Part shown: positions 18,692 through 56,195 of the stretch, in pieces
Position numbering within the stretch: position 1 is the first letter of the stretch
Layout of the letters: every line of letters begins with the position of its first letter
NCBI RefSeq assembly: GCF_029250625.1
Contig: NZ_JAQXEX010000032.1
Reading direction: 5' to 3' (one strand)
Length of the DNA: 57,930 nucleotides
Source: Poseidonia sp.
Lineage (GTDB): Archaea; Thermoplasmatota; Poseidoniia; Poseidoniales; Poseidoniaceae
The notes under the pieces: model-generated
Seen by the model: the letters and a program-made list of their open reading frames with translations, nothing else
Databases searched by the model: none
What the model was told of the DNA's origin: nothing
Made by a program: the position numbers and the translations under genes

Positions 18692-18777
18692 GCCGAGATC
18701 GCATAGCCTGGTAGTGCGCGCGACTGGAAATCGCGTGGGCCTGTCCCTCGGGAGTTCAAATCTCTCTCTCGGCGCCA
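18692..18777 (+). tRNA. tRNA-Ser (anticodon GGA), CCA encoded
   Basis: Cloverleaf folded by hand. Acceptor GCCGAGA/TCTCGGC, D stem CGCA/TGCG, anticodon stem CGCGA/TCGCG with loop CTGGAAA, long variable arm GGGCCTGTCCC, T arm GGGAG-TTCAAAT-CTCTC, discriminator G plus CCA. A TTAAA box at 18660-18664 sits ~30 nt upstream. Confidence 0.85.
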
Positions 18778-18790
18778 CTAACACGAACGA

Positions 18791-20404
18791 GTGTTCAACG
18801 ATGACGTCAAGCGAAAGTATGTTATCCGCTGTTTTTGTCGGAGGGCTGTGGACCTCCAGTTTCTCCAAGAGCGGCGTTGGTGGATGGGGTTCATGGTTTT
18901 GGGACTTCTTCTCAATGGGCTAGCAGTACTCAACAGCGATCTCGGTCTTGATGTCCATGTCCGGCTTAATGTTGCAAACGACAACTCCAACGACGGCGAT
19001 GATTATCCTTGGGGGCCAACCCGATGGTCCGAAGGAGACATTCAATCACCCGCTCCATCGGGGGAATACGATGGTTACATCGGCCCTTGGTACTCATCTC
19101 AATTTGCAGTTGGAGTTGTTTCTCTCTTGGGAATCATTGGGTTATCGCTTCTTGCCGGGTACGTCCCATTTTGGAGAAGGGAGCCCGCTGGTGCCGTATT
19201 TAATCCGATGTGGAGTGCTCTTGTTGCATGGAGTCCATGCTTAATGTTCGCAACTGGGAGAGGTTATGACGAAGCCATTCTTGCGCTCATCCTCGGATGT
19301 TCAATCTCTTGGCTATGGTTTGTTGACGGGAGTAAAGTCCGGCACTTACGCTTAGGAATTCTTATGATGGCGACGTCGATATTGTGCGTTTTAGGTTGGA
19401 AGGGCTTTGGCCCGTTAGCGTCCCTGTTGGTTTGGATACTCGTTTTGGCAACCGGAATGCTGTGGTTAACGCTTGATGGGTATCTTTCACGGTCAAACGA
19501 TATGCCCATGACTCAGCGACCTTGGATGATGAGTTCTGCAAGTTTTGCACTGACATTGTTGGCCATCACTGCCACTGGAGCGCTAGGTTACGGCGGTACT
19601 TTTTCAGTCGTCCAGGGGAATCTCGGAACTTTTCTCTTGAGTATTATCTTTGCCTTTCTTGATGGAATCGTTCTTTTCCTCATCGTTGGCTTTTGCCTCT
19701 GGCCGTTTATCATGTCCAATCCTTCGCTTCGAAATGCTCGTGGACGAGTCGTGACGATGGTAGCCGTCTTTTGCGCCGTTTTGGCTGCAGGCATTGTCGC
19801 CTATATCGGTGCATTATGGACTCTTGAGTCCAACCTTTGGGGAATTTCTCTCGTTCAGTGCATGATGCTACTTGGAAACAACGGCAGGTATGCTACCATT
19901 CTTGTTCTTCCATTGTTGATGCTTCTTCATCTATGCCACCAATCTGAAGGGGCATCATCTGCCTCTGAACCACCACTTCAGCACGTTCCAGCAAAGCCAC
20001 TTCTTCTGACCGTTCTCCTCCTCCTGCCTTTGGTTATGTTCACTTCGTTTCACGGACAACAACTCTGGCAGGAAGATGCTGGAGGCGCCTTATCAGATGC
20101 ATTGGACGTTGAGAACCCAACGGTTCTCCTCATCGCTGACAATTCACTGGCCATGCATTCGCTGTATGTCTTGAAAACCGAAGCAGACCTCTCCGGAGAC
20201 CTCAATTTAAGCGGCTATTGGCGAACGCCGGACGATGCTCTGTCATTTTTGAATTCGACATCGGTTGATGCAGTCATCATCGCACCGGGGGCTGACTTTG
20301 ATTTGGACGATGATTTGTGGGTGCAGGAAACGGCTGAAGCATCTCCCTTCACACTGTCATCGTGGTCTACTTCGGACAAGTGGGTCCTTTACCTGCCATC
20401 ATAG
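18791..20404 (+). CDS. Polytopic integral membrane protein with C-terminal soluble domain (hypothetical; GT-C-like glycosyltransferase possible)
   Basis: More than 10 hydrophobic helices and a ~120-aa acidic C-terminal domain. The track start is a GTG 14 nt after tRNA-Ser. The ATG at 18884 (MGFMVLGLLLNG) is an alternative. No WWDYG motif, so it is not AglB. Confidence 0.55.
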   Translation: MFNDDVKRKYVIRCFCRRAVDLQFLQERRWWMGFMVLGLLLNGLAVLNSDLGLDVHVRLNVANDNSNDGDDYPWGPTRWSEGDIQSPAPSGEYDGYIGPWYSSQFAVGVVSLLGIIGLSLLAGYVPFWRREPAGAVFNPMWSALVAWSPCLMFATGRGYDEAILALILGCSISWLWFVDGSKVRHLRLGILMMATSILCVLGWKGFGPLASLLVWILVLATGMLWLTLDGYLSRSNDMPMTQRPWMMSSASFALTLLAITATGALGYGGTFSVVQGNLGTFLLSIIFAFLDGIVLFLIVGFCLWPFIMSNPSLRNARGRVVTMVAVFCAVLAAGIVAYIGALWTLESNLWGISLVQCMMLLGNNGRYATILVLPLLMLLHLCHQSEGASSASEPPLQHVPAKPLLLTVLLLLPLVMFTSFHGQQLWQEDAGGALSDALDVENPTVLLIADNSLAMHSLYVLKTEADLSGDLNLSGYWRTPDDALSFLNSTSVDAVIIAPGADFDLDDDLWVQETAEASPFTLSSWSTSDKWVLYLPS

Positions 20405-20461: not shown

Positions 20462-20536
20462 GCCACCGTGGCTAAGGGGTATAGCACCTCATTGGTAATG
20501 AGGAGGTCGCGAGTTCAAATCTCGCCGGTGGCTCCA
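20462..20536 (+). tRNA. tRNA-Thr (anticodon GGT), CCA encoded
   Basis: 75 nt. Acceptor GCCACCG/CGGTGGC, D arm GCTA-AGGGGTA-TAGC, anticodon stem CCTCA/TGAGG with loop TTGGTAA, variable AGGTC, T arm GCGAG-TTCAAAT-CTCGC, discriminator T plus CCA. Confidence 0.88.
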
Positions 20537-39075: not shown

Positions 39076-42000
39076 ATGGGAGCGCACAGGTTTGCGATGA
39101 TTTGGGTCGTTTCGACCTTGTTCGCTTTCTTGTTCATTCCTACTGCATCTGCAGTATCAGTGACACAAACTGAGGGTTTCTCAACAGGACTTATTTGGCC
39201 TCTTTTAGTTTCAATTTCTGTCGCATTTCTTGTCAGGCGTTGGTTCATACCTCAACAACTCAAGAACCTCCAAGTGGCGTTTGAGATTGATGACGATCTC
39301 TATGAAGTCCACCGGATTACACGTACTCTGAAAGATTCACGTCGTCTCCTCAAAGAAGGACTTGTTGGCTACGGTGTGCTCCTCTACATGATGGGGCTGA
39401 CTGGGGTCTTGCTTCTCATCGCAGAATTGTTATTTGACCCATCCAATTTCTACAAAGTGAACCTCTACGTCATCGGCGTGCTCATTCTCATTCCAGTATT
39501 CATTTCTCCGTGGGAAACCTTGAACGGACAAATTCTCGGAAGGAGAACGAGAGAAGTGAAGTCGTCTAAAACCAACGATTTCATCCGAAGAGTCTTTACA
39601 ATGGCTCTCTTGATTATTGTGACCCTCATTGTGGTAGTCTATGGCTACAGTATTAACGGGTCCATTACACCAACATGGCTTGCCTTTGCAATGCTGACCT
39701 TCATGGCTCCGACCATTTTCGCCTATGGCCGAATCATGGGGGCTTCCTGGAACATGCTTCTCATCAGTAAGTGGAGGACGTTTAGGGGTAGGGCGAACCC
39801 CATCGACCCGATTATTCCGTCATTCGTCGGACGTACTTTTTCATTCATCCTTGTGTTGTTCCTCCTCACCATGCCCATTACTGCACTCAACGGCATCGTA
39901 ACGGTGCTCCATATCATGCTCAACAACCCCGCAAACGCAGAAGAGGTCTTGAATTATGGCGGCATCATCGGACATTCAATTTTCGTTCGTATCGACTTGA
40001 TTTCGGAGATTCTCTTCCACTGGGAATTCATCAAAGCCCTTCCGCAGTTCCTTTCGCTCTACCTCACAATGAACATCGCAATTGTTGGTCTTGCATTCAT
40101 TTTTGAACTCACACGTAACTTGATTCTAGGGGGGCAAACATTCGGTGGACTGTTTGGAGTTACCTTGGATACGCCTCGCGAAATTAGGACTGAGAAATCG
40201 GCACAAGCTCGACAATTGATCTTTGCCTTTGCTGGGTTTTCGGGTTATACAGTACTGTTGCTTGTTCTCGTGTGTTACAAGGAATTTGGTTCCTTAATGC
40301 CAATGACTACCTGGCTTGAAGGGAGAGGGTTTGATGAAGAAATGCGTCTGCTCACCGTATGGCTGTTTATCGCAGTCGGTCAAGCTGTCTTCATGCTAAC
40401 GTGGATTCTGTCAATTGTTCGTTTCGGTACACTTCGAAAGCTTCGCTTTGACCTCAATCCCGATGAGCGTCGAGAAGGTGCGGTGAAGGTTGAGGGTGGA
40501 GATCGTCTACAATTAATGGTCGAAACGGCGGCCTACAATGAAGACATCGATTTGCTCATCCGTGTTCAAACACATGACTTCCCTGGTGATCAAGCATTGA
40601 TTCGTCAGGAACAATCCCGCGCCTCAATGTGGGAAAAGGCACTGCGTGGACTTTGGCCACAGGCCATTGAAGAAAGTCGTAAACTTCTCGCTCAAGCTGG
40701 TGGAGACGATGATGAAGCGAGGATGATCATCGCCACCGGTTACATGGCATTGAGACGACTCGATGCCGCCCGTGAAGCCCTGCATGGCCTTCAACAGCCC
40801 GAAGGATACGATGAACCTGAACTTCTTTCGTTTGTCTGTGAATGGCTGGACCCATGGAATGGGACGGTAACAGAAGACGACCTCTGGGACTGGGAAAACA
40901 ATTCAGTTATTGATCACCTTCAAATGCTCCAAAATATGATGCGTTATTGGAACCCACAACCAAAGGAACTGAGCATGCATAAGGATCGTATTTCTTTGGT
41001 TGGGCAATTGTCCATGGTAGCCTTGTTAAGAGCTCAACGAAAATACGATGAGGCTTTGGAATTGGCGTTGACCTTGGTCCGTCAAGACCCAATTGGGGTT
41101 CGCCCCCGTGTAGCAGTTTCTCTCTGTCTTTTGGATACAGGTGAGTGGCATGATGCGAAATCAGTTTTGGATGAACTCATCAAGAGCGATGCCAAAGACC
41201 CACGCGTCATGGCATTGGCCGTTATCTTTGGATACGGCAAGAAAGGGAAAGAACACCTCGAGGTTTCGCTACTGCTTGACGATGAAAAGGAGAAGAGGCG
41301 ATGGGTTGATGCGGCTCCAGTCAATGCTTTCGCTGGCTTGGCCGTTAAGGGTGGCTTGGACGAAGCGATTACGGCAAACGTCATGGTTGCAGCACATGAA
41401 GCAACACGGCACGTGATGCCGCCGCGCTATTCGGCAAGCCCCATCTCAATTATTTTCACGTTCTTCGTTTTGGTCCCTCTTTGGTTTGTTCTCAGCATTC
41501 TCACCTACCAAGAAGTGGGTAAAAATGAAGGTGCTGCCTTGCTCGTCGTCTTGCTATTCTTGCACTTTTCTTACCGTAGGTTCATGGCCCAACAAGAGCA
41601 TTTGATCAAGCATCGTGACCAACGTGGTATGATGAAATATGTCCGCCGAATGAAGCGATTCAAAGCAACTCCTAACGGAAGCAATATTCCGATAGGAAAC
41701 CACCTTCTCATGTCTGGCATTCTCGTTTCAGTGAACGGGGTCGTATTGGACATCGGTATGCCGGCTTGGCTCCAAGACCGGTTGCCCAAGGAATCAGAAA
41801 AGAAAGTCAAGAGTCGACTGAAGCGAAGGGCTGTTTCAATGGCGAAAGGTCGCCCTCCAAGGGTTCAACCGTTGGGCAAAGCTTGGTGGTTAAAGCGCCC
41901 AAGGGAGCATGACGAATCTGGGCCTTTATTGGAACGATTCATCGGTCCAGTAGCCTATCGCGGACGGGCGAATTACATCCAGAAAAAGGGCGGAAATTAT

Positions 42001-42123
42001 CTGAATGCTATCGCTCAAGGGAAGGAACAGGATTCCATGAGCGACCGCATCATTCCACGAAACACAATACGTAACGAAAACCGTCCTGGTGGTCCTCCGA
42101 ACAGGCGTCCAGGTCGAATGTGA
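39076..42123 (+). CDS. Orphan 1015-aa polytopic membrane protein with central TPR-like helical domain and very basic C-terminal tail
   Basis: Signal-like N-terminus and ~10 TM helices (aa 1-470). A ~330-aa soluble helical-repeat region follows (ALRGLWPQAIEESRKLL, YDEALELALTLVRQDP, GEWHDAKSVLDELIKSD). Then 2 more TM helices and a ~190-aa Arg/Lys-rich tail ending RPGGPPNRRPGRM. Confidence 0.6.
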   Translation: MGAHRFAMIWVVSTLFAFLFIPTASAVSVTQTEGFSTGLIWPLLVSISVAFLVRRWFIPQQLKNLQVAFEIDDDLYEVHRITRTLKDSRRLLKEGLVGYGVLLYMMGLTGVLLLIAELLFDPSNFYKVNLYVIGVLILIPVFISPWETLNGQILGRRTREVKSSKTNDFIRRVFTMALLIIVTLIVVVYGYSINGSITPTWLAFAMLTFMAPTIFAYGRIMGASWNMLLISKWRTFRGRANPIDPIIPSFVGRTFSFILVLFLLTMPITALNGIVTVLHIMLNNPANAEEVLNYGGIIGHSIFVRIDLISEILFHWEFIKALPQFLSLYLTMNIAIVGLAFIFELTRNLILGGQTFGGLFGVTLDTPREIRTEKSAQARQLIFAFAGFSGYTVLLLVLVCYKEFGSLMPMTTWLEGRGFDEEMRLLTVWLFIAVGQAVFMLTWILSIVRFGTLRKLRFDLNPDERREGAVKVEGGDRLQLMVETAAYNEDIDLLIRVQTHDFPGDQALIRQEQSRASMWEKALRGLWPQAIEESRKLLAQAGGDDDEARMIIATGYMALRRLDAAREALHGLQQPEGYDEPELLSFVCEWLDPWNGTVTEDDLWDWENNSVIDHLQMLQNMMRYWNPQPKELSMHKDRISLVGQLSMVALLRAQRKYDEALELALTLVRQDPIGVRPRVAVSLCLLDTGEWHDAKSVLDELIKSDAKDPRVMALAVIFGYGKKGKEHLEVSLLLDDEKEKRRWVDAAPVNAFAGLAVKGGLDEAITANVMVAAHEATRHVMPPRYSASPISIIFTFFVLVPLWFVLSILTYQEVGKNEGAALLVVLLFLHFSYRRFMAQQEHLIKHRDQRGMMKYVRRMKRFKATPNGSNIPIGNHLLMSGILVSVNGVVLDIGMPAWLQDRLPKESEKKVKSRLKRRAVSMAKGRPPRVQPLGKAWWLKRPREHDESGPLLERFIGPVAYRGRANYIQKKGGNYLNAIAQGKEQDSMSDRIIPRNTIRNENRPGGPPNRRPGRM

Positions 42124-44649: not shown

Positions 44650-47600
44650 ATGTGCGGGGTATGTCAAATGAGCTTATCACACAATCAAATGGCCTATGTT
44701 GCTATTGTATCAACATTGATTTTCGGTTCCCTTTTCGTCGGTGTTTCAGGTTTCTTTCAAACCAGTGAGGACATCGGTGGATTTGAGTCAGCAGTCGAAG
44801 AAGATTTGCGAGGGGATACCGACCCAACCGCCGATTCAAAGGACTCCGATGAAGATGGACTTTCTGACCGCCTTGAGGAGACTCAATACGGTACCGACCC
44901 GAACGATAAGGATACGGATAACGACGGGATGGAAGACGGTTGGGAAGTACAACACGGTCTGAATCCTCTTGATAATGGAGACTCTGAAGACCTCGAAGTG
45001 GATCCAACTCAAAGCGATGAAACTGAAGATGCTTCCATTGAAAATGAAAGTGATTCATGGCCTGACCCCAACCAAGGACCGAATGGAGACCCTGACCGAG
45101 ACGGTCTAACCAACCAAGCAGAGCAGGATTTGGGCACGGACCCACAACGAGCTGATACAGACAACGACGGCCTTAACGACCGTTGGGAATCCCAATACAC
45201 GATGGAGGTACTCACCCCTGCTGGTACCGTGACATTGTTCAATCCACTGGACGGCAACTGGGATTGTATCCTCCTTGACCAAGCTATGGAAGATGCCCTT
45301 GAGAGCCGATTTAACGGAGAGAATGGCTTGCCTGAGTGGGACAGCCTTGCTTCAAACGGTCGTCATTCATGCGACATGGTCCTTGACAGTGATGATGACG
45401 GACTCGCTAACTTTGAGGAAGAATCATACGGAACCAATCCAACAGAAAGAGATTCTGATATGGATCTCATCGATGACATCCTGGAAGTTGCAAATGCTAC
45501 AATGGGAATGTTCACCGGTCTTGGTGAGAACTGCAATGTTGGCCTTGAAGTTTCAATCGAGCACGTTGGCCCTTTCTTTGGGAAGGAACGCAGTTGGTTC
45601 CTCCTCGACATGGACGGAGACGGTTTGCTCAATGGTCCATCTGACTGGGATACGGATGGAGACGGAATGCCTGACGGTTTTGAATTCTGTTATTCAGACC
45701 CTTTATTGGGTGCTCCTAATCCTGCCTATGTATTGGACCCTGCTAACGCTTCCGACGGCTACAATGACTGGGACGAAGACGGTATGAACAACGTAGAGGA
45801 ATACCAAGTTGCACAAATTTTTGGACCAACAAACTTCACTTCTCCATGGAGACTTGATACCGACCTTGACGATATGCCAGATGGCTGGGAAGCCAGTAAC
45901 GGTCTCAATCCTAGAGACGGTAACAACCGAGACGACGACCCAGACCGTGATGGATGGGACGTTGACCAAGACGGTAACGTTGTCTATGCAACGCTTGAAA
46001 ACACAGCGGTCGTTCATGGTATTGATGTTGCTCTAAACGACTTTGTGGAGGAAAATGAAACCGTGATTCGTGCACGAATCACACTCGGTGGAGGAAATCA
46101 ACAAATTGTTGCACTAAGCGCCCCAGTTTCTGGATATGTTTACTCAATCAATGTTCAAGTCGGCCAATCCATCGATTCAAGGATTTTCACTTGGGCATCC
46201 ATCGTTGAAGAAGAAGAACGCTTCACCAATGTCATGGAATACGAAGCCAACGACCGTGACGGCGACGGCGTGATTGATGGACGCAGTACAGACCCTCTCA
46301 ATGCCGATACCGATGCAGACGGCCTCATTGACGGAATCGAAGTTATGGGATGGGAGATTCTTGTTGTCAACCGAGGAGTTCAACCCACATGGGTTACCTC
46401 TGACCCTGGATTGTACGATACCGATGCTGACGGACTGAGTGACTTTGCAGAATTTTCATCCGCATGCAACGGTGGAGGCTCCAATGCATCCAACCCGGAT
46501 ACAGATTCAGACGGTCTCAGTGACTTGCAAGAGTCTGGAGACAATTTCATGTGGGAAGGGGAAGCCTATTCCACAAGTCCCTGTATGTTTGACACAGACA
46601 ACGACGGACTTGAAGACGGTGAAGAAGTCATTGCTGGTGAAGACAACTTCCTCACTCATGCCAACAACTCAGATACCGATAACGACGGGCTCGTAGACGG
46701 CCATGAAGTTCTCTTCGTACCTCGTCCATTCCAGAACCCAACGAATCCCCTTCTCAACGATACAGATTCCGATGGAATGCTCGACGGATGGGAGATGCAG
46801 GTAAAATCCGCTGAAGACAACACCAACTCGCACAGCCTTTGGGTTGCTACCTCTCCATGGGAGCGCCCTGGTTGCGATGCATCTCAAAGCAATTCATGCA
46901 CCATGCAACCTGGTGGATATGTCTGGCAGAATTGGCTCGGTGGATTTGCACTTGAACCCAAATTCCAAGTCAATGAGATGAACATCACCGGCTTCCAAAT
47001 GCCGAGTAACTCACTGTGTGATGGATGCAATGGCCGATGGGCCCTCGATCCCTCGCTCGATTCGCTAAAGGATGATACCTTTGACATCGACAACGACACG
47101 CTGGCCAACGCCCAAGAAGCTCCCGACCGATGGAACACAAATCCTGTTGATGACGATTCAGATGGCGACCTTCTACCCGATGGATGGGAAGTCTACTATT
47201 CACAGCAGGCATTGGAACTCGGACTCGTAGACAATGAAACCATCGGTGCATACGGTGCCCGTGGTGTCATGGACCCGTCCATGCCAGACAGCGACCTTGA
47301 CGGTATTGACGACGGTAATGAAGACCCTGACCAGGACGGTCTCAACCGTTCGGGCCTCATCAAGCGATATTGTCCGGGTTACAACGACACAACCAATTCT
47401 GAATGCAACATTGATCCTGAATCACCGGACGGTAAACGATTCTATGACAATCTAGAGAATTACACCAATTTCGAAGAAATGCAGAACGGTACGAACCCAA
47501 TCACCAACGATACCGATGGTGATGATTGGAACGACGGCCCCGAAGTCTTCTATCAAGACCACGATGATGATGGTATGGCTACCGGCTGGGAATATCACTT

Positions 47601-47751
47601 CCAGTTTGATCCGTTTGATGGTAATGATCGAATGGTTGACACCGATGGTGATGGTCACGTGAACTTCTGTGAGTACAAATGGGACACCAACCCAAGAAAT
47701 CCTGTATCCTATCCAGGTCAGGGTGAATTGTGCGACCCCTTCTCGGATTGA
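44650..47751 (+). CDS. Hyper-acidic secreted protein (1033 aa) built from thrombospondin type-3-like Ca-binding repeats
   Basis: N-terminal hydrophobic signal/anchor (MAYVAIVSTLIFGSLFVGVSGFF). More than 20 copies of D-x-D-x-DG-[LM]-x-D-G-[WE]-E / G-[TL]-[DN]-P motifs (DTDNDGMEDGWEVQHGLNPLD, DPDRDGLTNQAEQDLGTDP, DTDADGLSDFAE, DTDNDGLEDGEE, DSDGDLLPDGWE...). Which of three N-terminal ATGs is used is unresolved. Confidence 0.8.
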   Translation: MCGVCQMSLSHNQMAYVAIVSTLIFGSLFVGVSGFFQTSEDIGGFESAVEEDLRGDTDPTADSKDSDEDGLSDRLEETQYGTDPNDKDTDNDGMEDGWEVQHGLNPLDNGDSEDLEVDPTQSDETEDASIENESDSWPDPNQGPNGDPDRDGLTNQAEQDLGTDPQRADTDNDGLNDRWESQYTMEVLTPAGTVTLFNPLDGNWDCILLDQAMEDALESRFNGENGLPEWDSLASNGRHSCDMVLDSDDDGLANFEEESYGTNPTERDSDMDLIDDILEVANATMGMFTGLGENCNVGLEVSIEHVGPFFGKERSWFLLDMDGDGLLNGPSDWDTDGDGMPDGFEFCYSDPLLGAPNPAYVLDPANASDGYNDWDEDGMNNVEEYQVAQIFGPTNFTSPWRLDTDLDDMPDGWEASNGLNPRDGNNRDDDPDRDGWDVDQDGNVVYATLENTAVVHGIDVALNDFVEENETVIRARITLGGGNQQIVALSAPVSGYVYSINVQVGQSIDSRIFTWASIVEEEERFTNVMEYEANDRDGDGVIDGRSTDPLNADTDADGLIDGIEVMGWEILVVNRGVQPTWVTSDPGLYDTDADGLSDFAEFSSACNGGGSNASNPDTDSDGLSDLQESGDNFMWEGEAYSTSPCMFDTDNDGLEDGEEVIAGEDNFLTHANNSDTDNDGLVDGHEVLFVPRPFQNPTNPLLNDTDSDGMLDGWEMQVKSAEDNTNSHSLWVATSPWERPGCDASQSNSCTMQPGGYVWQNWLGGFALEPKFQVNEMNITGFQMPSNSLCDGCNGRWALDPSLDSLKDDTFDIDNDTLANAQEAPDRWNTNPVDDDSDGDLLPDGWEVYYSQQALELGLVDNETIGAYGARGVMDPSMPDSDLDGIDDGNEDPDQDGLNRSGLIKRYCPGYNDTTNSECNIDPESPDGKRFYDNLENYTNFEEMQNGTNPITNDTDGDDWNDGPEVFYQDHDDDGMATGWEYHFQFDPFDGNDRMVDTDGDGHVNFCEYKWDTNPRNPVSYPGQGELCDPFSD

Positions 47752-47769: not shown

Positions 47770-49395
47770 ATGAATCAAACACGCAAATGTGCCACTCAAG
47801 CACGACGCTGTTTACTGATTGCACTCATATTCTGTGTTCCATTAACACCCATTACCACAGCTGGTCATGGGCCCTCCGGTGGAGGGAATCCCGACCATAC
47901 CTTTGAGTTCACTTTTGACCAAGAGCAAGGAATCAATGTTATCGACACATTGGAATTGTCTGGAGAATCACGACTTCAATTGCGAGATACTGAATGGGAC
48001 CTCTATGATGTATTGGATGACATGAATCCTCTGTTGCACGGAGATTTTTTAACGGCAGTTTTTCCGACAGCTGACGGATACTCATGGAATTTATCAGTCA
48101 ATGTTTCCGGTTATGATTGCACGTGCATCATGGAAATCTCAGTCCCTAATCCGGATGGCGGGACACACGTCCACCCTTTGTTCGTCTACATCGGCTCGGT
48201 GAATCATCAACCGGTCCTGTTGCCGACAAACTTCCACCATGACTTCAGGCCGATGGTGAATGGGAACGTAGTAGATTCAAGCGAAGAGGGGGCGACATTT
48301 CAAACTGCTAGCCAGTCAAATTTACCTTTGAACACCCTTCAAGACAACGTTGTGGAATTCGGTCTCATTACTCCCGAAGGAGACGTGAACGGTTCCATGA
48401 TCAAGGCTAACATCTGTCAAGCACCATACGGTGTTTGTCTGGATGAGGGGAAAACTATGACACTTCTTGCTGAATTTCAAGACAATACAGTATCATTGCA
48501 TCTCAATTCTTCTCTCATTGATGATGAAGAAGGTATTTGGAAATTTGCCTTCTTTGCTCAAGATGACCTTTTACGTACTTCTCCTGACCAAAACATGTTC
48601 TTCATCCATGATGTAACTCCCCCATCATTAAAGATCAATATGGATTCATCCGCAGAGGAGTCAGAACAACTATCAGTATTTTCAGAAACAGTTGACGGCT
48701 ATACTGGAGCATATGTTCAGGAAACTTGGACCATTACACTACCAAACGGGTCTATTCGAGCCCCGTTTGCAGATGAAATCATTGATTCCAGCCATCTCAT
48801 CCTTAATTTCAGTCAATCCGGTGAGTATACTTTGGAATTATCCGGTAGGGACCAAGCAGGGAACATGAACTCAACGATGGTCCAGTTTAGCATTATCAAT
48901 CAACCTCCAGTGGCTGTAATTTCCATTGATGGTCTGACGGCTACCAACAACCAGATTGTTCAAATGAGTGCGGGTGGGAATTGGACCATTCATGGTACCG
49001 ACAGTTACGACAACGAGGTCATTGATTACCTGTGGATTATTGACTCATCAACATCAATTCGTGGAGTGGAATCACTCTCCTATGAAGATTTCAAATCCTC
49101 CGGAACATATCTGATTGAACTCATCGTTTTCGATGATGATGGTTCGACAAACTCCACCATCATTGAATTGCAAATTCAATCTGGTGATGATGCAGCCTCC
49201 GCTGGGCCCAATATGGTCATGCTCGCTTTCGTTGGCCTTGTGTTATTCGGAGCAATTTGTACCATTACATACTTCATCTTCGGAAGAGAAGAAACAGGTT
49301 CATTGCCGAAATGGTCTGCTGCTAACCCCACTGATACATCATCGGTAGAAGCCGACGATGAAGGTCAGAATAATGCAACGATTGAAGAAGCCTAG
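47770..49395 (+). CDS. Secreted, C-terminally anchored protein with PKD domain (541 aa)
   Basis: Signal peptide (CLLIALIFCVPLTPITTAG). PKD-like module (NQPPVAVISIDG...HGTDSYDNEVIDYLWII...GTYLIELIVFDDDGSTNSTII). C-terminal TM helix (MVMLAFVGLVLFGAICTITYFIF) plus an acidic tail. SD AAGGAGA lies 4 nt upstream, and the gene starts 18 nt after the TSP3 gene. Confidence 0.75.
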   Translation: MNQTRKCATQARRCLLIALIFCVPLTPITTAGHGPSGGGNPDHTFEFTFDQEQGINVIDTLELSGESRLQLRDTEWDLYDVLDDMNPLLHGDFLTAVFPTADGYSWNLSVNVSGYDCTCIMEISVPNPDGGTHVHPLFVYIGSVNHQPVLLPTNFHHDFRPMVNGNVVDSSEEGATFQTASQSNLPLNTLQDNVVEFGLITPEGDVNGSMIKANICQAPYGVCLDEGKTMTLLAEFQDNTVSLHLNSSLIDDEEGIWKFAFFAQDDLLRTSPDQNMFFIHDVTPPSLKINMDSSAEESEQLSVFSETVDGYTGAYVQETWTITLPNGSIRAPFADEIIDSSHLILNFSQSGEYTLELSGRDQAGNMNSTMVQFSIINQPPVAVISIDGLTATNNQIVQMSAGGNWTIHGTDSYDNEVIDYLWIIDSSTSIRGVESLSYEDFKSSGTYLIELIVFDDDGSTNSTIIELQIQSGDDAASAGPNMVMLAFVGLVLFGAICTITYFIFGREETGSLPKWSAANPTDTSSVEADDEGQNNATIEEA

Positions 49396-49410: not shown

Positions 49411-50784
49411 ATGTTCGCTGATGCCATGGACCGGTTGCCTCCTCAACCCGCACCAACACCGTTAGCAGAATACAAGCAACGACAGGACCGTCTTACTTCG
49501 CAGTTCAAAAAAGACGACTTGTTCATTCTCGCCGCTCCTCAAGAAGCCGTCCATTCCAACGATGTCCACTACCGTTTCAGAACCTCGAGTGATATCCTCT
49601 ATCTGACCGGATGGTTTGACCCGGAGGCATCAGTTGTCCTCAGATACGATGAAGGTACTTGGAAAACATGCTTGTTTGTCCAACCAAAGGATACCCTCAA
49701 GGAAATTTGGGAAGGACGCAGGCCAGGTGTTGAAGGAGCTCTTGCTCACTACGCCGTAGACGAGGCTTACCCGAGTTCTGATTTGGAAGAATGCCTTGAT
49801 GTTTGGTTTCCCGAGTGCAAAAGAGTCTATCACCGTGGAGGCATTAATGCTCATCTTGATTCAATGGTGGATTCGGCAATCCTTCGTCGAGATCGTGCTC
49901 GCCAGCACTTTGGAACCGGCCCCTTTGTTGTCCAAGACCCAGCATCGCTCCTTGCGGAACTGCGATTACGGAAGTCCGCATCTGAGATTGAACAGATGAA
50001 ATATGCGAGTGAAGTTGCAAGTCTTGCCCATGAACTTGCGATGCGACACAGCAAAGATGGCGTCAATGAAGGTCAACTACAAGCGATAATTGAGGGATTT
50101 TTCTCATATGCAGGGGCATCAGGTTGGGCCTACCCGTCCATCGTTGGCTGTGGTGAAAATGCCACAATTCTTCATTATACAGTCAACAACGACGAATGTC
50201 GGGACGGCGAGGTCATTCTTATTGACGCAGGTGCTGAATATCGTGGATATGCAAGCGACATTACTCGCTCGTGGCCAATCTCTGGAACGTTCACTGAGGC
50301 GCAAAATGAAATATACAGTCTTGTACTTAAGTCTCAAGAGGCTGCTATTGCTGCTTGCAAAGTCGGAAATGCATACACTGCACCCCATGACGAGGCACGT
50401 CGTGTATTGGCGGAAGGACTGATTGAACTTGGTATCATTTCGCAGACTGTTGACGAAGCTCTTGACCCAACGGACGGTGAACTTCGCAACTGGTACATGC
50501 ACAACACCAGCCATTGGATTGGACTTGATGTTCACGATGTCGGAGTGTACAAACCGGGCGGGACTCCTCGAACGCTTGAGTCCGGGATGTGTCTTACTGT
50601 TGAGCCGGGATTGTATTTCGGCGCTTGGAGGCCAGACGTTGACTGTCCTAAACGGTATGCAAACATCGGTATCCGAATTGAAGATGATGTCCTGGTCACC
50701 GAGACCGGTCCCGTTGTATTGACCAATGCATGCCCAAAAACAGTAGACGATATACAATCCATCGTCGGCCAACCGTTGTCTTGA
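49411..50784 (+). CDS. pepP: Xaa-Pro aminopeptidase (peptidase M24B, PepP-like)
   Basis: AMP_N-like N-domain (YRFRTSSDILYLTGW). Metal ligands in ILIDAGAEYRGYASDITRSWP, HWIGLDVHD, LTVEPGLY and GIRIEDDVLVT. SD-like GGTGGGA lies 5 nt upstream. Confidence 0.88.
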   Translation: MFADAMDRLPPQPAPTPLAEYKQRQDRLTSQFKKDDLFILAAPQEAVHSNDVHYRFRTSSDILYLTGWFDPEASVVLRYDEGTWKTCLFVQPKDTLKEIWEGRRPGVEGALAHYAVDEAYPSSDLEECLDVWFPECKRVYHRGGINAHLDSMVDSAILRRDRARQHFGTGPFVVQDPASLLAELRLRKSASEIEQMKYASEVASLAHELAMRHSKDGVNEGQLQAIIEGFFSYAGASGWAYPSIVGCGENATILHYTVNNDECRDGEVILIDAGAEYRGYASDITRSWPISGTFTEAQNEIYSLVLKSQEAAIAACKVGNAYTAPHDEARRVLAEGLIELGIISQTVDEALDPTDGELRNWYMHNTSHWIGLDVHDVGVYKPGGTPRTLESGMCLTVEPGLYFGAWRPDVDCPKRYANIGIRIEDDVLVTETGPVVLTNACPKTVDDIQSIVGQPLS

Positions 50785-50793
50785 GGTGATTCT

Positions 50794-51987
50794 GTGAGCT
50801 GGTTGAAAATCTTGGAGCGACAGCAGGAATGGACGCCAGCAAACGCTGCTCAATTGCGATTAACGGAAGAAGAAGCAACGTTGCTCTATGAGAATGCCCC
50901 TTTGCATGCACTCATGCAGGCTGCTCATCGTCGACGATTGGCGATGCATCCTAATGGAAAAGTCACCTATCTCATCGATCGCAATATCAATTACACAAAT
51001 GTCTGTACGATCAATTGTCAATTCTGTTCATTCTATCGGCCCCCCGGTCACGATGAAACTTACACTCAAACCTTTGAAGAAATTTCCAACCGTATTGTTG
51101 AACTCGAAGCCATCGGAGGTGTTCGCATCTTAATGCAAGGCGGAGTCAATCCTGAACTGCCATTCAAATGGTACACGGACCTCATTGCCCACTTGTGCAA
51201 ACATCACCCGACCATTCATCTTGATTGCTTCAGTCCTATTGAAATTGAAGGCATAGCCGAGGTTTCAGGCATGTCAACGCTTGAAGTTCTTACACGCTTG
51301 AAGAACGCAGGTATGCACGGCCTTCCTGGCGGTGGGGCTGAAATGCTGGTTGAAGATGTTCGTACTGATGTTTCTCCAAAGAAGGGGCATCCTTCCAACT
51401 GGTTGAGAGTGATGGAAGAAGCTCAATCCTTAGGCCTCACGACCAGTGCAACGAACGTCATAGGGTTTGGAGAATCAATGGCGCAGCGTGTTGAACACAT
51501 GGCACGGATTCGGGAACTTCAGGACGCTTCAATAGAACACTATGGTAGAGGATTTACCTCGTTCATCGCCTGGCCTGTCCAACTGGAGACCAACACCTTC
51601 GGAAAAAGAAACAAGGGGCAAAACAAACACACTCTTGGTGCAGGTTCATCTGAATATCTTCGGCACATTGCGATTTCCCGACTTTATCTGGACAGCATCC
51701 AGCACATTCAGGCATCATGGCCTACCATGGGACTCGCAATTTCACAAATGGCACTCTTGGGTGGCGCTGACGATGCAGGTTCAACAATGATGGAAGAAAA
51801 TGTAGTATCCGCTTCTGGAACAAAGAAACTGGAAGCCTCAGAAATTGAACTTCAGGACTCCATCAGAAGAGCCGGATTTATCCCACAACGCAGGGACAGT
51901 GACTACCAAGACTTGGATACGGCCCTTGTTTCCGTGGACCCCAAAGTGATGGCTGCACCTACACCAGACGCATCTATGATGTCGTAG
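50794..51987 (+). CDS. Radical SAM enzyme of the MqnC/MqnE/CofH family (cyclic dehypoxanthinyl futalosine synthase-like)
   Basis: NINYTNVCTINCQFCSFYR (C-x3-C-x2-C), ILMQGGVNPEL, GLPGGGAEMLVEDVR and GFTSFIAWPVQ. The GTG start is supported by GAGGTGA (50783-50789) 4 nt upstream, overlapping the pepP stop. MqnC versus MqnE is not resolvable by eye. Confidence 0.65.
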   Translation: MSWLKILERQQEWTPANAAQLRLTEEEATLLYENAPLHALMQAAHRRRLAMHPNGKVTYLIDRNINYTNVCTINCQFCSFYRPPGHDETYTQTFEEISNRIVELEAIGGVRILMQGGVNPELPFKWYTDLIAHLCKHHPTIHLDCFSPIEIEGIAEVSGMSTLEVLTRLKNAGMHGLPGGGAEMLVEDVRTDVSPKKGHPSNWLRVMEEAQSLGLTTSATNVIGFGESMAQRVEHMARIRELQDASIEHYGRGFTSFIAWPVQLETNTFGKRNKGQNKHTLGAGSSEYLRHIAISRLYLDSIQHIQASWPTMGLAISQMALLGGADDAGSTMMEENVVSASGTKKLEASEIELQDSIRRAGFIPQRRDSDYQDLDTALVSVDPKVMAAPTPDASMMS

Positions 51988-54900
51988 GTCCGTAGTAGAC
52001 CACCCATATCACGGCACGAATATTTCGTTGACCGTTTCCAACACCGTCGGAAGGGACATATTCTTGGCCGTTGTAATAGCCTCTGTAAACCAAGTGATTG
52101 TTGTTGCCACTGCTGTTGTCCACCCAATCGGTAATGTCGTACGTCCATTGTTTGACATCTTGACCAGCACACCATCCAGCCCTTCCAAAGGGCCATGAAC
52201 CAAACTGATTAGCGACTACACCGTTACGAACCTCATTTTCACATCCTTCGTTATTGTAAACGATTGGATGCCATTCATGAATTTGGTTGGAGCCCATGGT
52301 GTAGTAGTGTTGATGGTCGCAGAATTCTGCGCAATTGGCATTATCCTTCCCAAATCCATGCCCGGTAATGGTTGCTACAATCTCGACTTTTGTCGCCCAT
52401 GAAGGGGTGGTGAAGTTGAGTTGTCGGTTGTATCTTGACTCGTTGTTGTAGGTGCCGTCAAATTGCCCTCCGCTGAAGGCATAGGTTGCATTCATTGCAC
52501 GCTCGCCACTGTCCCAATTGCTGAACAAGAAGGTAACAGTCAAGTCTCCTTTATTCGCTCCTCCGTACTTGAAGCGTCGCTCTTCTCCATCGTTAATCAT
52601 GAACAAATATGGAGAGATGTCTGTGAGCCATTGCCCTTCTCGGCCATAAGTTGTGATCCACCGCATGATTTCTGTATTGCACGTTGAAGAGTTGCTCGCA
52701 TCGCAAATGTAGAGGTTCGCTAGATAATCCCATTCGTGACATCCTCCATAACTCTGGTCCGAGTTTTGATAACGATTCTTCCGCTCATAACAAGCATGCT
52801 CGTGATATACCTCTAAGGTATCATACGATGAAATTTCATTCGGTAAGTCAAAGGTCGATGTCGCAAACGAAGAGAATCCTCCACCCCATCCACCCGTGTG
52901 ACGTTGGAAGTCAAGAATATTTATTGCGTGAACACCTGGGTCTTGTTGACGGATTTTCACTGGAAATTCTGCGACCCATTGATTGGGTTCATGGGACAGA
53001 TGAAACGGGTCATTTGATTGAGAAGTCCATGCATACAGGGACCCCGTTTCACGAGAGAGTTGAAACCTGTCAATGCCCATAAAAAACGGGTTATTGAAGG
53101 ATGAAATCATTTGTCCCAAGCCACCACCGAGATTGCTTGCATCAACGTCGATGTAGTGTATTCTCTCGTTCCACTGTTCCTCTTCGGAAGCGGTTAGACC
53201 TGCAAGTACACTGCTCCGCTGCTGGATGACATCATTATGGTAAGAGTTGTCAAATGAACCGTAGAAAAGATGCATGTTTTCCGGCAGATTGCGGATGAAC
53301 TTACCCGGATTTTGACCCCATGTCGCTGAATTGGAAGAACCGCTTGAATCGGTATACTTGAACATAAACATATACACATCCATCCCCGTCCATTCGTTTT
53401 GGAAGCTGTAGGTTCCGCTTAGTGTGGGGAAGGAAAAGTTAGGAACGGTTTGCATCGGTCCGTTCAGGGCCGATGCACTGGTCCAATTTACAGGAGTCTG
53501 GACAACGGCACATCCAACTGTATCTACCGTCCAGCGTTCAGGAGATTGCGAGCAGATGTCCACGTTTGCAAACACTCCGTCTCCATCGAGGTCAGCGCAT
53601 CCCACCGTGTTAACATTCAACCCGGAGGGTGTCCCTTCGCACTGGTCGGAGTCATCGTTTACACCGTCTTGATCTGTATCTCGCTGATTCGCAGCACATC
53701 CTATTTCGTTGACCGTGGTCGAATTGAGAGGCGTTTGCGGGCACAGGTCCAGTGTTGCACCGGTTGAATTGACATCGTTCACGCCGTCGTTATCATCATC
53801 GTCGTCTTCTGTAGAATCATTACAACCGTCCTGGTCCCAATCTAAAGTTGAATTCGCCTGCCAGAGAATGGTACCCTTAGGGCATTGGTCGTTAACATCA
53901 ACATAGTCATCGTTGTCATCGTTATCATCTTCGTCGAGGTCAGCGCATCCATCCCCGTCCCAATCACTGTAGTCATTTGAGGTCCAGCCAAGCAATCCAA
54001 CAGGACATCGGTCATCGCCATCCATAACCCCGTCTCCATCATCATCGGTATCTTCGTCAGCATCATGGCATCCATCAGAATCATAATCTGCAGTTGGAGT
54101 ACTCAACCAACCATACGATCCTGGGCATTGGTCATGGGCGTCAAGGATTCCATCATTGTCGTCATCATCGTCTTCAATGCTGTCTCTGCATCCATCACGG
54201 TCACCATCAGTCGCCTCGTTTGAGACCCAACCCTCCTCTTTTCCTATTCCTTGGGGGCAGTTGTCATCAGCCGTTGGTATTCCATCACCATCCTCATCAT
54301 CTCCGGCTCCTTCAATGACAATCTGAGTCACAAATGTGTCACTTAATTGGGTGAATTGACCGCAGATTGCATGGGTTGTAATCGTGAGAGTTTCAGTTGA
54401 ATCAGAAAAATCCATGAGCTTCTTCCAGGTGAAATCTGGTGTCAATCCCAACGACCCTGTGCTACCATCACTGATGGTGTAGGTTAGTGAACAAGTCGCA
54501 GGGCTGTCATGTTCAACCGAACCCTCAAACATTACAGCCTCGGGTTGTTCCAAAACAATACGGGAAGGGGCAGTAATTATCGGAGCTTCTTCAACTGGCT
54601 CAATGACTTCAAGAAGATGAACAAGAGGCTCAGTTTCAGGTACCATTGAGCTTTCTCCAATGTTGGTAAACGTTAACCGAACAATATAGTCACCAACTGA
54701 TTCAGCAGGGAACGATAACTTGTATCCATCTGATTGCTGGGCCCATACGAGTCCTTCTATCGATGAAAATGTCGGAGAAAGGACCGACGGTGTGATCTCA
54801 AATTCTCCAGAGCCGATTCGTTCTACATTGACAAGAAATATTGCATCTTCACCCATGGTGATGGTGGTGGGTGCCAGTGCCCATGATGCCTTAATTTCGT

Positions 54901-55012
54901 AGGTATTGACAACGTCTTCCTCGATGATCGGTTCGGGTTCTGCCCCACTTAGACAACCCGATATCAACATCAGTGATACAAAAAATATAGCGGATAGACG
55001 GTGCTTGTCCAT
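51974..55012 (-). CDS. Surface lipoprotein: Ig-like modules, OmpA-type TSP3 repeat array, Cys-less thioredoxin-like module, and a C-terminal PNGase F-like domain
   Basis: MDKHRLSAIFFVSLMLISGC is a lipobox-type signal (L-I-S-G-C). The TSP3 array is DGDGIPTADDNCPQG, DNDGILDAHDQCPG, DGDGVMDGDDRCPVG, DQDGVNDDSDQCEGTP... The C-terminal ~320 aa match PNGase F motifs (CHEWDYLANLY, NCAEFC, GRAGWCAG). The track start at 55078 would overlap the upstream gene by 41 nt, so I prefer the ATG at 55012 on signal-peptide logic. Neither start has an SD. Confidence 0.8.
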   Translation of the reverse strand: MDKHRLSAIFFVSLMLISGCLSGAEPEPIIEEDVVNTYEIKASWALAPTTITMGEDAIFLVNVERIGSGEFEITPSVLSPTFSSIEGLVWAQQSDGYKLSFPAESVGDYIVRLTFTNIGESSMVPETEPLVHLLEVIEPVEEAPIITAPSRIVLEQPEAVMFEGSVEHDSPATCSLTYTISDGSTGSLGLTPDFTWKKLMDFSDSTETLTITTHAICGQFTQLSDTFVTQIVIEGAGDDEDGDGIPTADDNCPQGIGKEEGWVSNEATDGDRDGCRDSIEDDDDDNDGILDAHDQCPGSYGWLSTPTADYDSDGCHDADEDTDDDGDGVMDGDDRCPVGLLGWTSNDYSDWDGDGCADLDEDDNDDNDDYVDVNDQCPKGTILWQANSTLDWDQDGCNDSTEDDDDDNDGVNDVNSTGATLDLCPQTPLNSTTVNEIGCAANQRDTDQDGVNDDSDQCEGTPSGLNVNTVGCADLDGDGVFANVDICSQSPERWTVDTVGCAVVQTPVNWTSASALNGPMQTVPNFSFPTLSGTYSFQNEWTGMDVYMFMFKYTDSSGSSNSATWGQNPGKFIRNLPENMHLFYGSFDNSYHNDVIQQRSSVLAGLTASEEEQWNERIHYIDVDASNLGGGLGQMISSFNNPFFMGIDRFQLSRETGSLYAWTSQSNDPFHLSHEPNQWVAEFPVKIRQQDPGVHAINILDFQRHTGGWGGGFSSFATSTFDLPNEISSYDTLEVYHEHACYERKNRYQNSDQSYGGCHEWDYLANLYICDASNSSTCNTEIMRWITTYGREGQWLTDISPYLFMINDGEERRFKYGGANKGDLTVTFLFSNWDSGERAMNATYAFSGGQFDGTYNNESRYNRQLNFTTPSWATKVEIVATITGHGFGKDNANCAEFCDHQHYYTMGSNQIHEWHPIVYNNEGCENEVRNGVVANQFGSWPFGRAGWCAGQDVKQWTYDITDWVDNSSGNNNHLVYRGYYNGQEYVPSDGVGNGQRNIRAVIWVVYYGPTTS
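53504..54313 (-). repeat. Coding tandem repeat: about 9 OmpA-type thrombospondin type-3 units (D-x-D-x-DG-x-x-D-x-x-D-x-CP)
   Basis: Asp-codon-rich low-complexity DNA (GAT/GAC; ATC/GTC on the + strand) encoding aa ~256-525 of the lipoprotein. The last units have the bacterial OmpA-linker form CPxTPxGxxVxxxGC. Confidence 0.75.
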
Positions 55013-55037
55013 GACACTTGGAGTGCCTTTCCGTCCA

Positions 55038-56195
55038 TCAATGTGTTGATGGAATGACGTCTGACTCGGAACGGCCATCGTGCAACGGTAGGGTTCTCAA
55101 ATCCAATTCAGTGGGTGAATGATGAGCAACTTTCAACGGTTGCACCCACAATAAAGCTCCACCTTTCTCGCGTTCTATTCGAACGATACATTCCCAGTGA
55201 ATTCGAAGCAATGGACTGCTGACCGTCCCCGGCCAAAACGGTTCAGGAGGGGACAATTCAATGGTTTCCCCTTCGTTCCAACGTTGAACACTTCCTTGAG
55301 CCATGATTCGCATGGGCCGTAGATAGAGTCCACCCTTTACTTGTTGCAACTCCATGGGGGCGTCTTCACCGCCAGCGGTACCGTCGTCAAGTCCTGCTTC
55401 CCAATGATGTGGGAGTTCAGTTGAGAGGCCAGGTGGTGGTTGTCGCTGGGTGCTTCGGCCGAGTGTTTTGAGTAACGATTCTCGGGCAGGGGGGAGAATT
55501 CCAACGCGCCAGGTGACATCTGCGTGTATCCATCCTGCGTCCCATTCAGGGAATTTGAGTTCAAGCGACAAATGCTCATTTGAAACACTGTCCTTCAAGA
55601 ATTGAATGTCGGGCATTTCCAAATTGCGCTGGAGAAACGTATTTTGACGACGGAGTTCTATCAAATTCGCAAGAACACGGATGAAAAGCGGCGCAAAGAG
55701 AAGGGGGATCACCAAAGTCGCAAGAATTGGGTAATCAAGTAGCCCCCAACGCACGCTGTCCAATCCATAGACAGGTATACCGAGGAGCATTAAAATTGGA
55801 GATATTGCGAGGTATGCAAGACTCAACAGGAGAACAATTACGACACCGTTGATGAATTTCCTCAAGATATTATGAATCGGGTTCGGAATCAAGTACCAAC
55901 CTCTCCGCTGTCGTTTAACGATTCTCGGGAATTTATTGGATTCCAGCCAGTGGTCATGCTGCACGGCGCTTAGAATTTCATCATCGTATCTGTATCGTCG
56001 CTCAATCATCCAGGAATCATCCTCGCCCAATTTGAACGGTGGACAGCGAGAATTGAGTTCTTCTATCGCAAGGTCCTTGTTCTCAAACGAGCCAATTTTG
56101 AACTGATGTTCGGCTATTGGAAGTGCTTCAGGGCGCCACCGATTCGGCTCAAAAGGCGGGTATCTGATGCGTTGCTCCTCAATTAAGTCCGACAC
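55038..56195 (-). CDS. Orphan membrane protein (385 aa): cytoplasmic N-domain, ~3 TM helices, beta-rich C-domain
   Basis: The GTG start has GAGGTG (56201-56206) 5 nt upstream, overlapping the stop of the geranylgeranyl reductase gene. TM segments VVIVLLLSLAYLAISPILMLLGIPVYG and ILATLVIPLLFAPLFIRVLANLI. No family recognised. Confidence 0.6.
   Translation of the reverse strand: MSDLIEEQRIRYPPFEPNRWRPEALPIAEHQFKIGSFENKDLAIEELNSRCPPFKLGEDDSWMIERRYRYDDEILSAVQHDHWLESNKFPRIVKRQRRGWYLIPNPIHNILRKFINGVVIVLLLSLAYLAISPILMLLGIPVYGLDSVRWGLLDYPILATLVIPLLFAPLFIRVLANLIELRRQNTFLQRNLEMPDIQFLKDSVSNEHLSLELKFPEWDAGWIHADVTWRVGILPPARESLLKTLGRSTQRQPPPGLSTELPHHWEAGLDDGTAGGEDAPMELQQVKGGLYLRPMRIMAQGSVQRWNEGETIELSPPEPFWPGTVSSPLLRIHWECIVRIEREKGGALLWVQPLKVAHHSPTELDLRTLPLHDGRSESDVIPSTH

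Follow-up and report, generated by a model that had tools for sequence, protein, structure and literature searches.

A stretch of 57,930 nucleotides from contig NZ_JAQXEX010000032.1 of Poseidonia sp. (the window, hereafter meaning this whole DNA) carries on its minus strand a gene for a large protein whose C-terminal 320 residues are a domain of the PNGase F superfamily (PF09112/PF09113, clan CL0612) with an intact Asp/Glu/Arg set, as judged from sequence, profile and predicted fold. We propose, with moderate confidence, that this protein is a lipid-anchored cell-surface peptide:N-glycanase (PNGase, EC 3.5.1.52) of a Marine Group IIa (MGIIa) archaeon and that its main task would be to strip exogenous N-glycans. 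We infer an enzymatic activity, a glycan specificity and a nutritional role and, by analogy with a zebrafish relative, a dimeric state. The conserved unit is larger than the PNGase domain that had originally been predicted, since it also includes a thioredoxin-like (Tx-like) domain in residues 531-700.

Membership of the PNGase F superfamily

The original prediction, made from the DNA sequence alone, had placed a PNGase F-like domain at positions 51977-52936, which encode residues 715-1034, the C-terminal third of the open reading frame (ORF); residue numbers here follow the full 1034-residue mechanical ORF, counted from position 55078. The Pfam profile, phmmer and the predicted fold support this domain far beyond chance. 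PF09113 (N-glycanase_C) matches residues 877-994 with 66.4 bits, against a gathering cut-off of 25 (E 3e-18). In phmmer comparisons with the PDB, residues 714-976 align with residues 2-258 of PNGase F (1pnf, 1pgs and 3pms) at E 2e-8 to 4e-8. These alignments reproduced all four matches that had first been made by eye, namely VHAINILDFQ..FATSTFDLP with VNIKTFDK..EGTFTFPAD, GGCHEWDYLANLY with KTCDEWDRYANVY, ITGHGFGK..NCAEFC with ISGWGHAK..GCAEWC, and GRAGWCAGQDV with DRAGWCPGMAV. The best PDB match was 9lwg, the zebrafish acid PNGase Ngly2 (E 3e-42, residues 695-1015), with a second, weak stretch in which residues 537-660 align with the thioredoxin-like domain of Ngly2 (residues 76-200). The likeness to PNGase F that had been predicted is thus correct at the level of the superfamily, but the closest characterized relative is an animal enzyme, and the Tx-like domain had gone unseen.

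The prediction had named both N-glycanase profiles as a check. PF09113 scored above its cut-off, but PF09112 (N-glycanase_N) gave no match at E<=1 in the profile search of the protein. Most other members of the family likewise have no PF09112 match, with a single weak one in a relative designated P0118, and despite the silent profile the N-terminal half of the domain is covered by the phmmer alignment to PNGase F and by a structure model.

For this model, residues 530-1034 were searched against a large protein collection, which gave 332 homologues, and 85 of these were aligned and used to build an AlphaFold2 (AF2) prediction of 505 residues (mean predicted local distance difference test, pLDDT, 94; predicted template-modelling score, pTM, 0.91). 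It consists of an alpha/beta first domain and is all-beta from model residue 187 onwards. Foldseek, run against the PDB, again ranked 9lwg first (E 3e-35), and since the template-modelling (TM) score of 0.81, normalized to the query, covers the whole 505-residue model, the Tx-like and PNGase domains appear to be arranged as they are in Ngly2. PNGase F structures followed at E ~1e-15 with TM 0.71-0.73 normalized to PNGase F, the alignments to 1pnf, 1pgs and 3pms running over 346-351 columns, gaps included, for chains of 311-314 residues. PNGase F-II, Bacteroides PNGase-like proteins and two recent PNGases were found at E 1e-9 to 1e-11, whereas matches to Bcp1, DsbE and thioredoxin are confined to a portion of the model roughly as large as the Tx-like domain. 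Model and Foldseek together predict two consecutive eight-stranded beta jelly rolls, the fold that had been expected, and the N-terminal jelly roll that escapes PF09112 is present in the model.

The active site

Correspondences within the active site were taken from the phmmer and MAFFT alignments. Trp59-Asp60-Arg61 of PNGase F aligns with Trp783-Asp784-Tyr785, Tyr85 with Tyr811, Cys204-Ala-Glu206-Trp-Cys208 with Cys916-Ala-Glu918-Phe-Cys920, and Arg248-Ala-Gly-Trp251-Cys252 with Arg966-Ala-Gly-Trp969-Cys970. Kept from PNGase F are therefore Trp59-Asp60, Tyr85, Cys204-Ala-Glu206-x-Cys208, Arg248, Trp251 and the Cys51/56 and Cys231/252 pairs, at an overall identity of 17-18%. On the strength of alignment and invariance, the predicted catalytic residues are Asp784 (codon 52727..52729, minus strand), the counterpart of Asp60 in PNGase F and Asp421 in Ngly2, and Glu918 (codon 52325..52327, minus strand), the counterpart of Glu206 and Glu555, respectively; Arg966 (codon 52181..52183, minus strand) is by the same evidence the equivalent of Arg248. 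Mutagenesis has shown that Asp421 and Glu555 are essential for Ngly2 activity (PMC12753239). The three disulfides of PNGase F (51-56, 204-208 and 231-252) have invariant equivalents in Cys763/780, 916/920 and 946/970, which are predicted to pair, and an additional pair, Cys792/800, follows the catalytic Asp and is common to Ngly2.

Trp783, Asp784, Tyr811, His907, Cys916-Cys920, Arg966, Trp969 and Cys970 are invariant both in the 85-sequence family alignment and in 67 complete Poseidoniales orthologues. This bears on whether the module might be mainly a lectin-like, glycan-binding adhesin head for algal cells or particles, in which catalysis is weak or lost. Thrombospondin-type repeats and Ig-like domains such as those carried by this protein are typical of adhesins, Rinke et al. 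have linked the widespread thrombospondin genes of Poseidoniales to adhesion (PMC6461757), carbohydrate-binding modules are similar to jelly-roll domains of this fold class (PMC8812541), and some substrate-binding residues are changed. We nevertheless consider such an adhesin head improbable, because all the residues known to be needed for catalysis (Asp, Glu, Arg, Tyr and Trp) have remained invariant over 85 diverse and 67 orthologous sequences, a pattern that one would not expect of a pure binding module.

The residues that have changed are those that in PNGase F hold the glycan. Arg61 is replaced by Tyr785, Trp191 by His907 (inside an invariant G-H-G, with His546 at this position in Ngly2), and Glu118 and Trp120 are lost to a Gly/Ala-containing stretch, residues 836-841; in addition, Trp207 has become Phe. 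It had been predicted that Glu118 (within YTETW) was replaced by FSNW. Glu118 is indeed not conserved, but in the phmmer and MAFFT alignments it falls opposite FKYGGA (836-841), and FSNW (852-855) lies opposite VYGT of PNGase F. The chitobiose-contact residues of PNGase F were reportedly described by Kuhn et al. in 1995. Arg61, Glu118, Trp120 and Trp191 are listed as such contacts in the Ngly2 study, which also found that Ngly2, likewise devoid of them, is active on a broad range of glycans (PMC12753239). Because an active PNGase can do without them, these four residues appear to be marks of PNGase F itself rather than of the superfamily, and their loss weakens the case for a PNGase F-like specificity but not the case for a PNGase. 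The glycan specificity, and even the linking sugar, may therefore differ from those of PNGase F.

Further residues are invariant in the archaeal proteins. His759-Glu760-His761, His781, His922, His924 and His937, which include an HEH and an HxH motif (~52268-52804), are found in 67/67 archaeal orthologues and are lacking in many bacterial relatives. They could be metal ligands or serve to tune the pH dependence close to the active site. Together with His907, and with the replacement of Glu118, Trp120, Arg61 and Trp191, they raise the question of whether the PNGase scaffold has been turned to another reaction, either on a non-GlcNAc linking sugar or other glycosylamide, or a histidine-based, metal-dependent one as in peptidylglycine alpha-hydroxylating monooxygenase (PHM), which is a distant fold match in Foldseek (E 1e-3). 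We give this little credence. Ngly2, a proven PNGase that tolerates a broad range of glycans, has likewise lost Glu118 and Arg61 and has His in place of Trp191 (PMC12753239); many bacterial family members do without the HEH and HxH histidines; and PHM is far less similar than the PNGases are.

Gene start and protein architecture

The mechanical ORF extends over 51974..55078 (minus strand, 1034 codons), and its first ATG, at 55078, lies inside the upstream gene. The conserved N-terminus of about 70 orthologues opens with M-x-[KR], followed by a hydrophobic stretch and [LM]L[AS]GC, a pattern that in the window protein corresponds to Met23 (55012) through Cys42. Since the conserved lipobox signal begins there, the true start is probably Met23, and the gene as most likely expressed, judged from the ORF list and the orthologue N-termini, spans 51974..55012 (minus strand) and encodes 1012 residues from Met23 to the stop. 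Orthologue conservation thereby delineates a Sec-type signal peptide in residues 23-42 (54953..55012, minus strand), ending in the lipobox MDKHRLSAIFFVSLMLISG with the cleavage site just before the C that follows. The features of an archaeal lipoprotein signal (basic n-region, hydrophobic h-region and lipobox [LVI][ASTVI][GAS]C) are all seen in MDKHRLSAIFFVSLMLISGC, and the same pattern recurs in the ~70 orthologues, which bears out the original view of the protein as a surface lipoprotein. The lipobox Cys is kept in 99% of the 67 orthologues, Cys42 is the predicted lipid-modified first residue of the mature protein, and the signal peptide is the only hydrophobic segment of the whole protein.

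Downstream of Cys42 comes a variable, beta-rich (Ig/filamin-like) region, residues 43-255 (54314..54952, minus strand), for which phmmer gave a weak match (E 0.005) to an Ig repeat of filamin-B. Residues 256-530 (53489..54313, minus strand) are recognized by composition and Cys spacing as Asp-rich thrombospondin-type-3-like (TSP3-like) repeats: they contain 25% Asp and one Cys per 14-27 residues, arranged in four ~41-residue and three ~30-residue units of the thrombospondin-type-3, OmpA-linker kind. A sub-threshold match to NCBIfam throspo3_MtsC (E 5e-6) and one to the OmpA-family TSP3 structure 5wtl (E 0.03) point the same way, and the repeat region is presumed to be a Ca2+-binding stalk. The Tx-like domain, residues 531-700 (52979..53488, minus strand), was delimited from the AF2 fold, Foldseek and the weak phmmer stretch; it contains no Cys and is redox-inactive. 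It is followed by the N-terminal jelly roll of the PNGase domain, residues 701-860 (52499..52978, minus strand), drawn from alignments, invariance and model fold and containing C763/C780, W783-D784-Y785, C792/C800 and Y811, and by the C-terminal jelly roll, residues 861-1034 (51977..52498, minus strand), which rests on PF09113, alignments and invariance and contains G906-H907-G908, C916-A-E918-F-C920, C946 and R966-A-G-W969-C970. The profile search gave no match to a PA domain (PF02225), and the Tx-like domain leads straight into the jelly roll.

Conservation is uneven along the protein. On average per position, the residue of the window protein recurs in 31% of the 67 orthologues within residues 43-255, the lowest value, in 68% within the Tx-like domain and in 65-73% across repeats, Tx-like and PNGase domains; the Tx-like and PNGase module is the best-conserved part. 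Bacterial homologues of 520-700 residues hold only a signal, the Tx-like domain and the PNGase domain, so that the ~490-residue stalk appears to be an archaeal addition, one that plausibly projects the enzyme off the membrane and through the cell envelope.

Comparison with characterized PNGases and bacterial relatives

Ngly2, the acid or lysosomal peptide:N-glycanase of zebrafish described by Honda et al. (J Biol Chem 2025, PMC12753239), is the best match of the archaeal protein in both sequence and structure, at ~20% identity in the Foldseek alignment. The two proteins have in common a Cys-free thioredoxin-like domain followed by the PNGase F-type double jelly roll, the catalytic Asp and Glu, a His at the position of PNGase F Trp191, the absence of Glu118 and the extra disulfide pair past the catalytic Asp. 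They differ in that Ngly2 has, between the Tx-like and PNGase domains, a PA domain that shapes the substrate cleft, and in that the archaeal protein carries the ~490 N-terminal stalk residues in addition to the Ngly2 layout. Within the active site, Tyr785 stands in place of His422, and Trp480, which matters for Ngly2 activity, aligns with a Gly/Ala stretch of the archaeal protein. Ngly2 is moreover a soluble, lysosomal enzyme, active only below ~pH 6. For the archaeal protein the prediction is a lipid anchor and exposure to seawater of ~pH 8, and as an extracellular lipoprotein in such surroundings it is unlikely to have an acid pH optimum. In Ngly2, the Tx-like domain is a dimerization domain and the PA domain restricts access to unstructured peptides (PMC12753239). 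By analogy, the Tx-like domain may mediate dimerization of the archaeal protein, and the missing PA domain may admit bulkier substrates.

PNGase F of Elizabethkingia meningoseptica (1pnf, 1png, 1pgs and 3pms; PF09112 and PF09113) has the same double eight-stranded jelly roll, but it is a secreted enzyme of small size with a single module, and has neither a Tx-like domain nor a stalk nor a lipid anchor. PNGase F-II (4r4x), the Bacteroides PNGase-like proteins (3ks7 and 4qhb), a PNGase acting on plant and insect glycans (7zgn) and PNGase Bb (9vla) belong to the same superfamily and share the fold, but are more distant (10-14% identity, TM ~0.4) and have other accessory domains.

The proteins nearest to the archaeal ones outside the Archaea are bacterial 'peptide-N-glycosidase F-related proteins' from Myxococcota, Bradymonadia and related groups (for instance P0036, P0047 of Vulgatibacter, P0063 of Sandaracinus, and P0087), which are 30-36% identical over 96-100% of the query, that is over the whole Tx-like and PNGase module. 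They have the same invariant residues as the archaeal protein but measure ~520-700 residues and have no Ig-like region and no Asp/Cys-repeat stalk. Three of the bacterial proteins (P0032, P0033 and P0087) carry a Cys-rich, EGF-like insertion of 60-130 residues in the first jelly roll, just past the catalytic Asp; P0033 also has a Teneurin-type EGF Pfam match further towards its N-terminus, in residues 124-151. Two others, P0098 and P0114, possess a PA domain and thus the complete Tx-like, PA, PNGase architecture of animal Ngly2.

Distribution and history of the gene

In one genome per GTDB species, a pattern scan picked out at least 477 loci with genes for relatives of the protein; the details that follow come from the best 80. 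These are 59-96% identical to the window protein, each from a different GTDB species, and in them the gene is present, intact and syntenic. The top locus belongs to Ca. Poseidonia alphae UBA255 (96% identity), and this, with the archaeal nature of the housekeeping genes in the window (eIF-6, RtcB, archaeal D-aminoacyl-tRNA deacylase, a CPxCG zinc-finger protein and aminoacyl-tRNA synthetases), agrees with the archaeal host that had been assumed. In every locus long enough, the gene order is geranylgeranyl reductase (GGR), a hypothetical membrane protein (hyp385), the PNGase-like gene, a convergent MqnC, Xaa-Pro aminopeptidase (PepP), a PKD protein and a 1033-residue TSP3 protein. Since this synteny is kept and the gene has the same GC content as the window, the PNGase-like gene appears to be a long-standing, vertically inherited component of the core genome of Poseidoniaceae; a recent horizontal transfer was considered and ruled out on the same two grounds. 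The gene is under purifying selection.

All but one of the best 80 loci (79/80) are labelled as Poseidoniales, euryarchaeotal or Thermoplasmatota metagenome-assembled genomes (MAGs). The exception, L010 (NZEQ01000045.1), is labelled Verrucomicrobiales bacterium ARS100 and shows the full Poseidoniales synteny, with 57-86% identity over seven genes (33% for the PKD protein). Because the synteny on this contig is entirely that of Marine Group II (MGII), it is probably an archaeal contig mis-binned into a bacterial MAG.

A neighbour-joining tree of the PNGase domain, which has no support values and is built from a sample biased towards the query, gathers the archaeal sequences in a single clade made up of an MGIIa-type and a second subclade (with MGIIb- and Thalassarchaeaceae-named members). 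This clade nests among bacterial sequences, with those named Myxococcota, Vulgatibacter, Sandaracinus and Bradymonadia as its sister groups. The simplest reading of these sequences would be a single ancient transfer of the PNGase gene from a bacterium to an archaeon.

Genomic neighborhood

Directly upstream of the PNGase-like gene, in the same direction and 25 nucleotides from its probable start, lies the gene for hyp385 (55038-56195, minus strand), a protein of 385 residues for which two transmembrane helices are predicted. All MGIIa loci carry it in the same syntenic place, with 41-90% identity, and it gave no Pfam, NCBIfam or PDB match. A functional link through an operon was considered and rejected, the neighbors being only MqnC, a geranylgeranyl reductase family protein, Xaa-Pro aminopeptidase and this two-helix protein.

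The plus strand carries a bacterial-TSP3-repeat protein of 1033 residues (44650-47751), 65-98% identical across MGIIa, and a PKD-domain surface protein with a C-terminal transmembrane segment (47770-49395), which is 75% identical in Ca. Poseidonia alphae and only 23-37% outside this closest relative. Paralogy between the TSP3 protein and the PNGase-like protein was discarded, because they have only Asp-rich repeats in common and the TSP3 protein is without a PNGase domain. The minus strand encodes an FG-GAP/CARDB protein of 1917 residues (3128-8881). These very large surface proteins, encoded near a PNGase-like protein predicted to be tethered at its own cell surface, suggest that an active enzyme might rather be directed against the archaeon's own N-glycoproteins (S-layer, archaellins and other sequon-rich surface proteins), in remodelling, turnover or recycling. 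The PNGase-like protein itself has 11 sequons, the changed chitobiose contacts could mean an adaptation to an archaeal glycan, and the archaea-specific invariant His and Glu residues lie close to the active site. We regard a self-directed role as unlikely, however: the archaeal clade nests among bacterial homologues presumed to be without N-glycosylation, which points to an ancestral role on foreign glycans, the catalytic module would be held ~490 residues away from the membrane on its stalk, and a constitutive amidase attacking the cell's own coat would be costly.

Other genes in the window include a TPR protein of 1015 residues (39076-42123, plus strand), a subtilase of family S8 (15038-16225, minus strand) and the Xaa-Pro aminopeptidase (M24 with AMP_N; 49411-50784, plus strand). 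The subtilase and the aminopeptidase fit a proteolytic lifestyle, and neither is in an operon with the PNGase-like gene. A 537-residue ORF without Pfam match (18791-20404, plus strand) lies between tRNA-Ser (18692-18777) and tRNA-Thr (20462-20536).

Proposed function

In the reading that we prefer, that of a surface PNGase acting on exogenous N-glycans, the protein would be exported by the Sec pathway and cleaved at the lipobox, and lipid modification of Cys42 would tether it to the outer face of the membrane. The ~490 residues of Ig-like and Ca2+-binding thrombospondin-3-like repeats would form a stalk, at the tip of which the Tx-like domain and the PNGase F-type double jelly roll would be displayed. 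Asp784 and Glu918, aided by Tyr811, Arg966 and Trp969, would hydrolyze the amide bond between the Asn side chain and the first sugar of an N-glycan, freeing the whole glycan and leaving an Asp in the peptide. N-glycans would thus be removed from exogenous, for example phytoplankton-derived, glycoproteins and glycopeptides, and the deglycosylated peptides would be digested by surface or secreted peptidases and taken up by transporters.

The nearest non-archaeal relatives belong to Myxococcota and Bradymonadia, groups for which we know of no general N-glycosylation system. We lean towards exogenous glycoproteins and glycopeptides as the substrate because these relatives are bacterial and presumed to lack N-glycosylation of their own, because the stalk is long, and because Poseidoniales are described as proteolytic heterotrophs dependent on external amino acids (PMC6461757). 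Several observations weigh against this reading, starting with the silent PF09112 profile and the altered chitobiose contacts described above. Among potential substrates, the N-glycosylated proteins of the cell's own surface lie nearest. The PNGase-like gene shares no operon with a peptidase, glycosidase or transporter, and the surroundings of bacterial homologues in Vulgatibacter, on a 5-Mb metagenome contig and on a Bradymonadia-like contig showed no partner gene that recurs. The members of the prokaryotic Tx-like and PNGase clade are, moreover, all uncharacterized.

The enzyme family is already known and is recognized by automated annotation; the NCBI pipeline names a Poseidoniales relative, the MAG protein P0016, a 'peptide-N-glycosidase F-related protein'. 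The archaeal protein is a new, uncharacterized member of it. Full-text literature searches turned up no relevant paper that connects MGII or Poseidoniales to PNGase, 'glycosidase F' or deglycosylation. The Ngly2 paper mentions orthologues 'even in some bacteria' and in aquatic animals and does not mention archaea (PMC12753239), and the main comparative genomics study of Poseidoniales treats thrombospondin genes as adhesion factors and mentions no glycanase (PMC6461757).

As a broader picture, which we put forward only tentatively as a whole, a surface PNGase would be passed on vertically as a core trait of those planktonic archaea that are most abundant in the surface ocean, and it would be the first archaeal PNGase. 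Its remodelled glycan site (Tyr785, His907, no Glu118 or Trp120) would confer a specificity other than that of PNGase F, for example for algal or archaeal N-glycans, making it a gateway to archaeal proteolysis of marine glycoproteins, and the prokaryotic Tx-like and PNGase clade would be the source of animal Ngly2.

Marine Group II archaea are uncultured, globally abundant heterotrophs that are thought to feed on protein. Much marine protein is N-glycosylated, and glycans shield protein from proteases. The interest of the finding rests on this ecological setting, on the universal conservation of the gene in MGIIa and on its value as a relative of Ngly2. If our reading is right, the enzyme would be the first of the PNGase F type to be characterized from Archaea and would provide a neutral or alkaline, salt-adapted and PA-less relative of Ngly2, helping to explain the differences in pH and substrate within the family; PNGases with new specificities are also useful as glycomics reagents. 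For the archaea themselves, a conserved surface PNGase would be a concrete step in the access of MGII to the nitrogen and carbon of glycoproteins.

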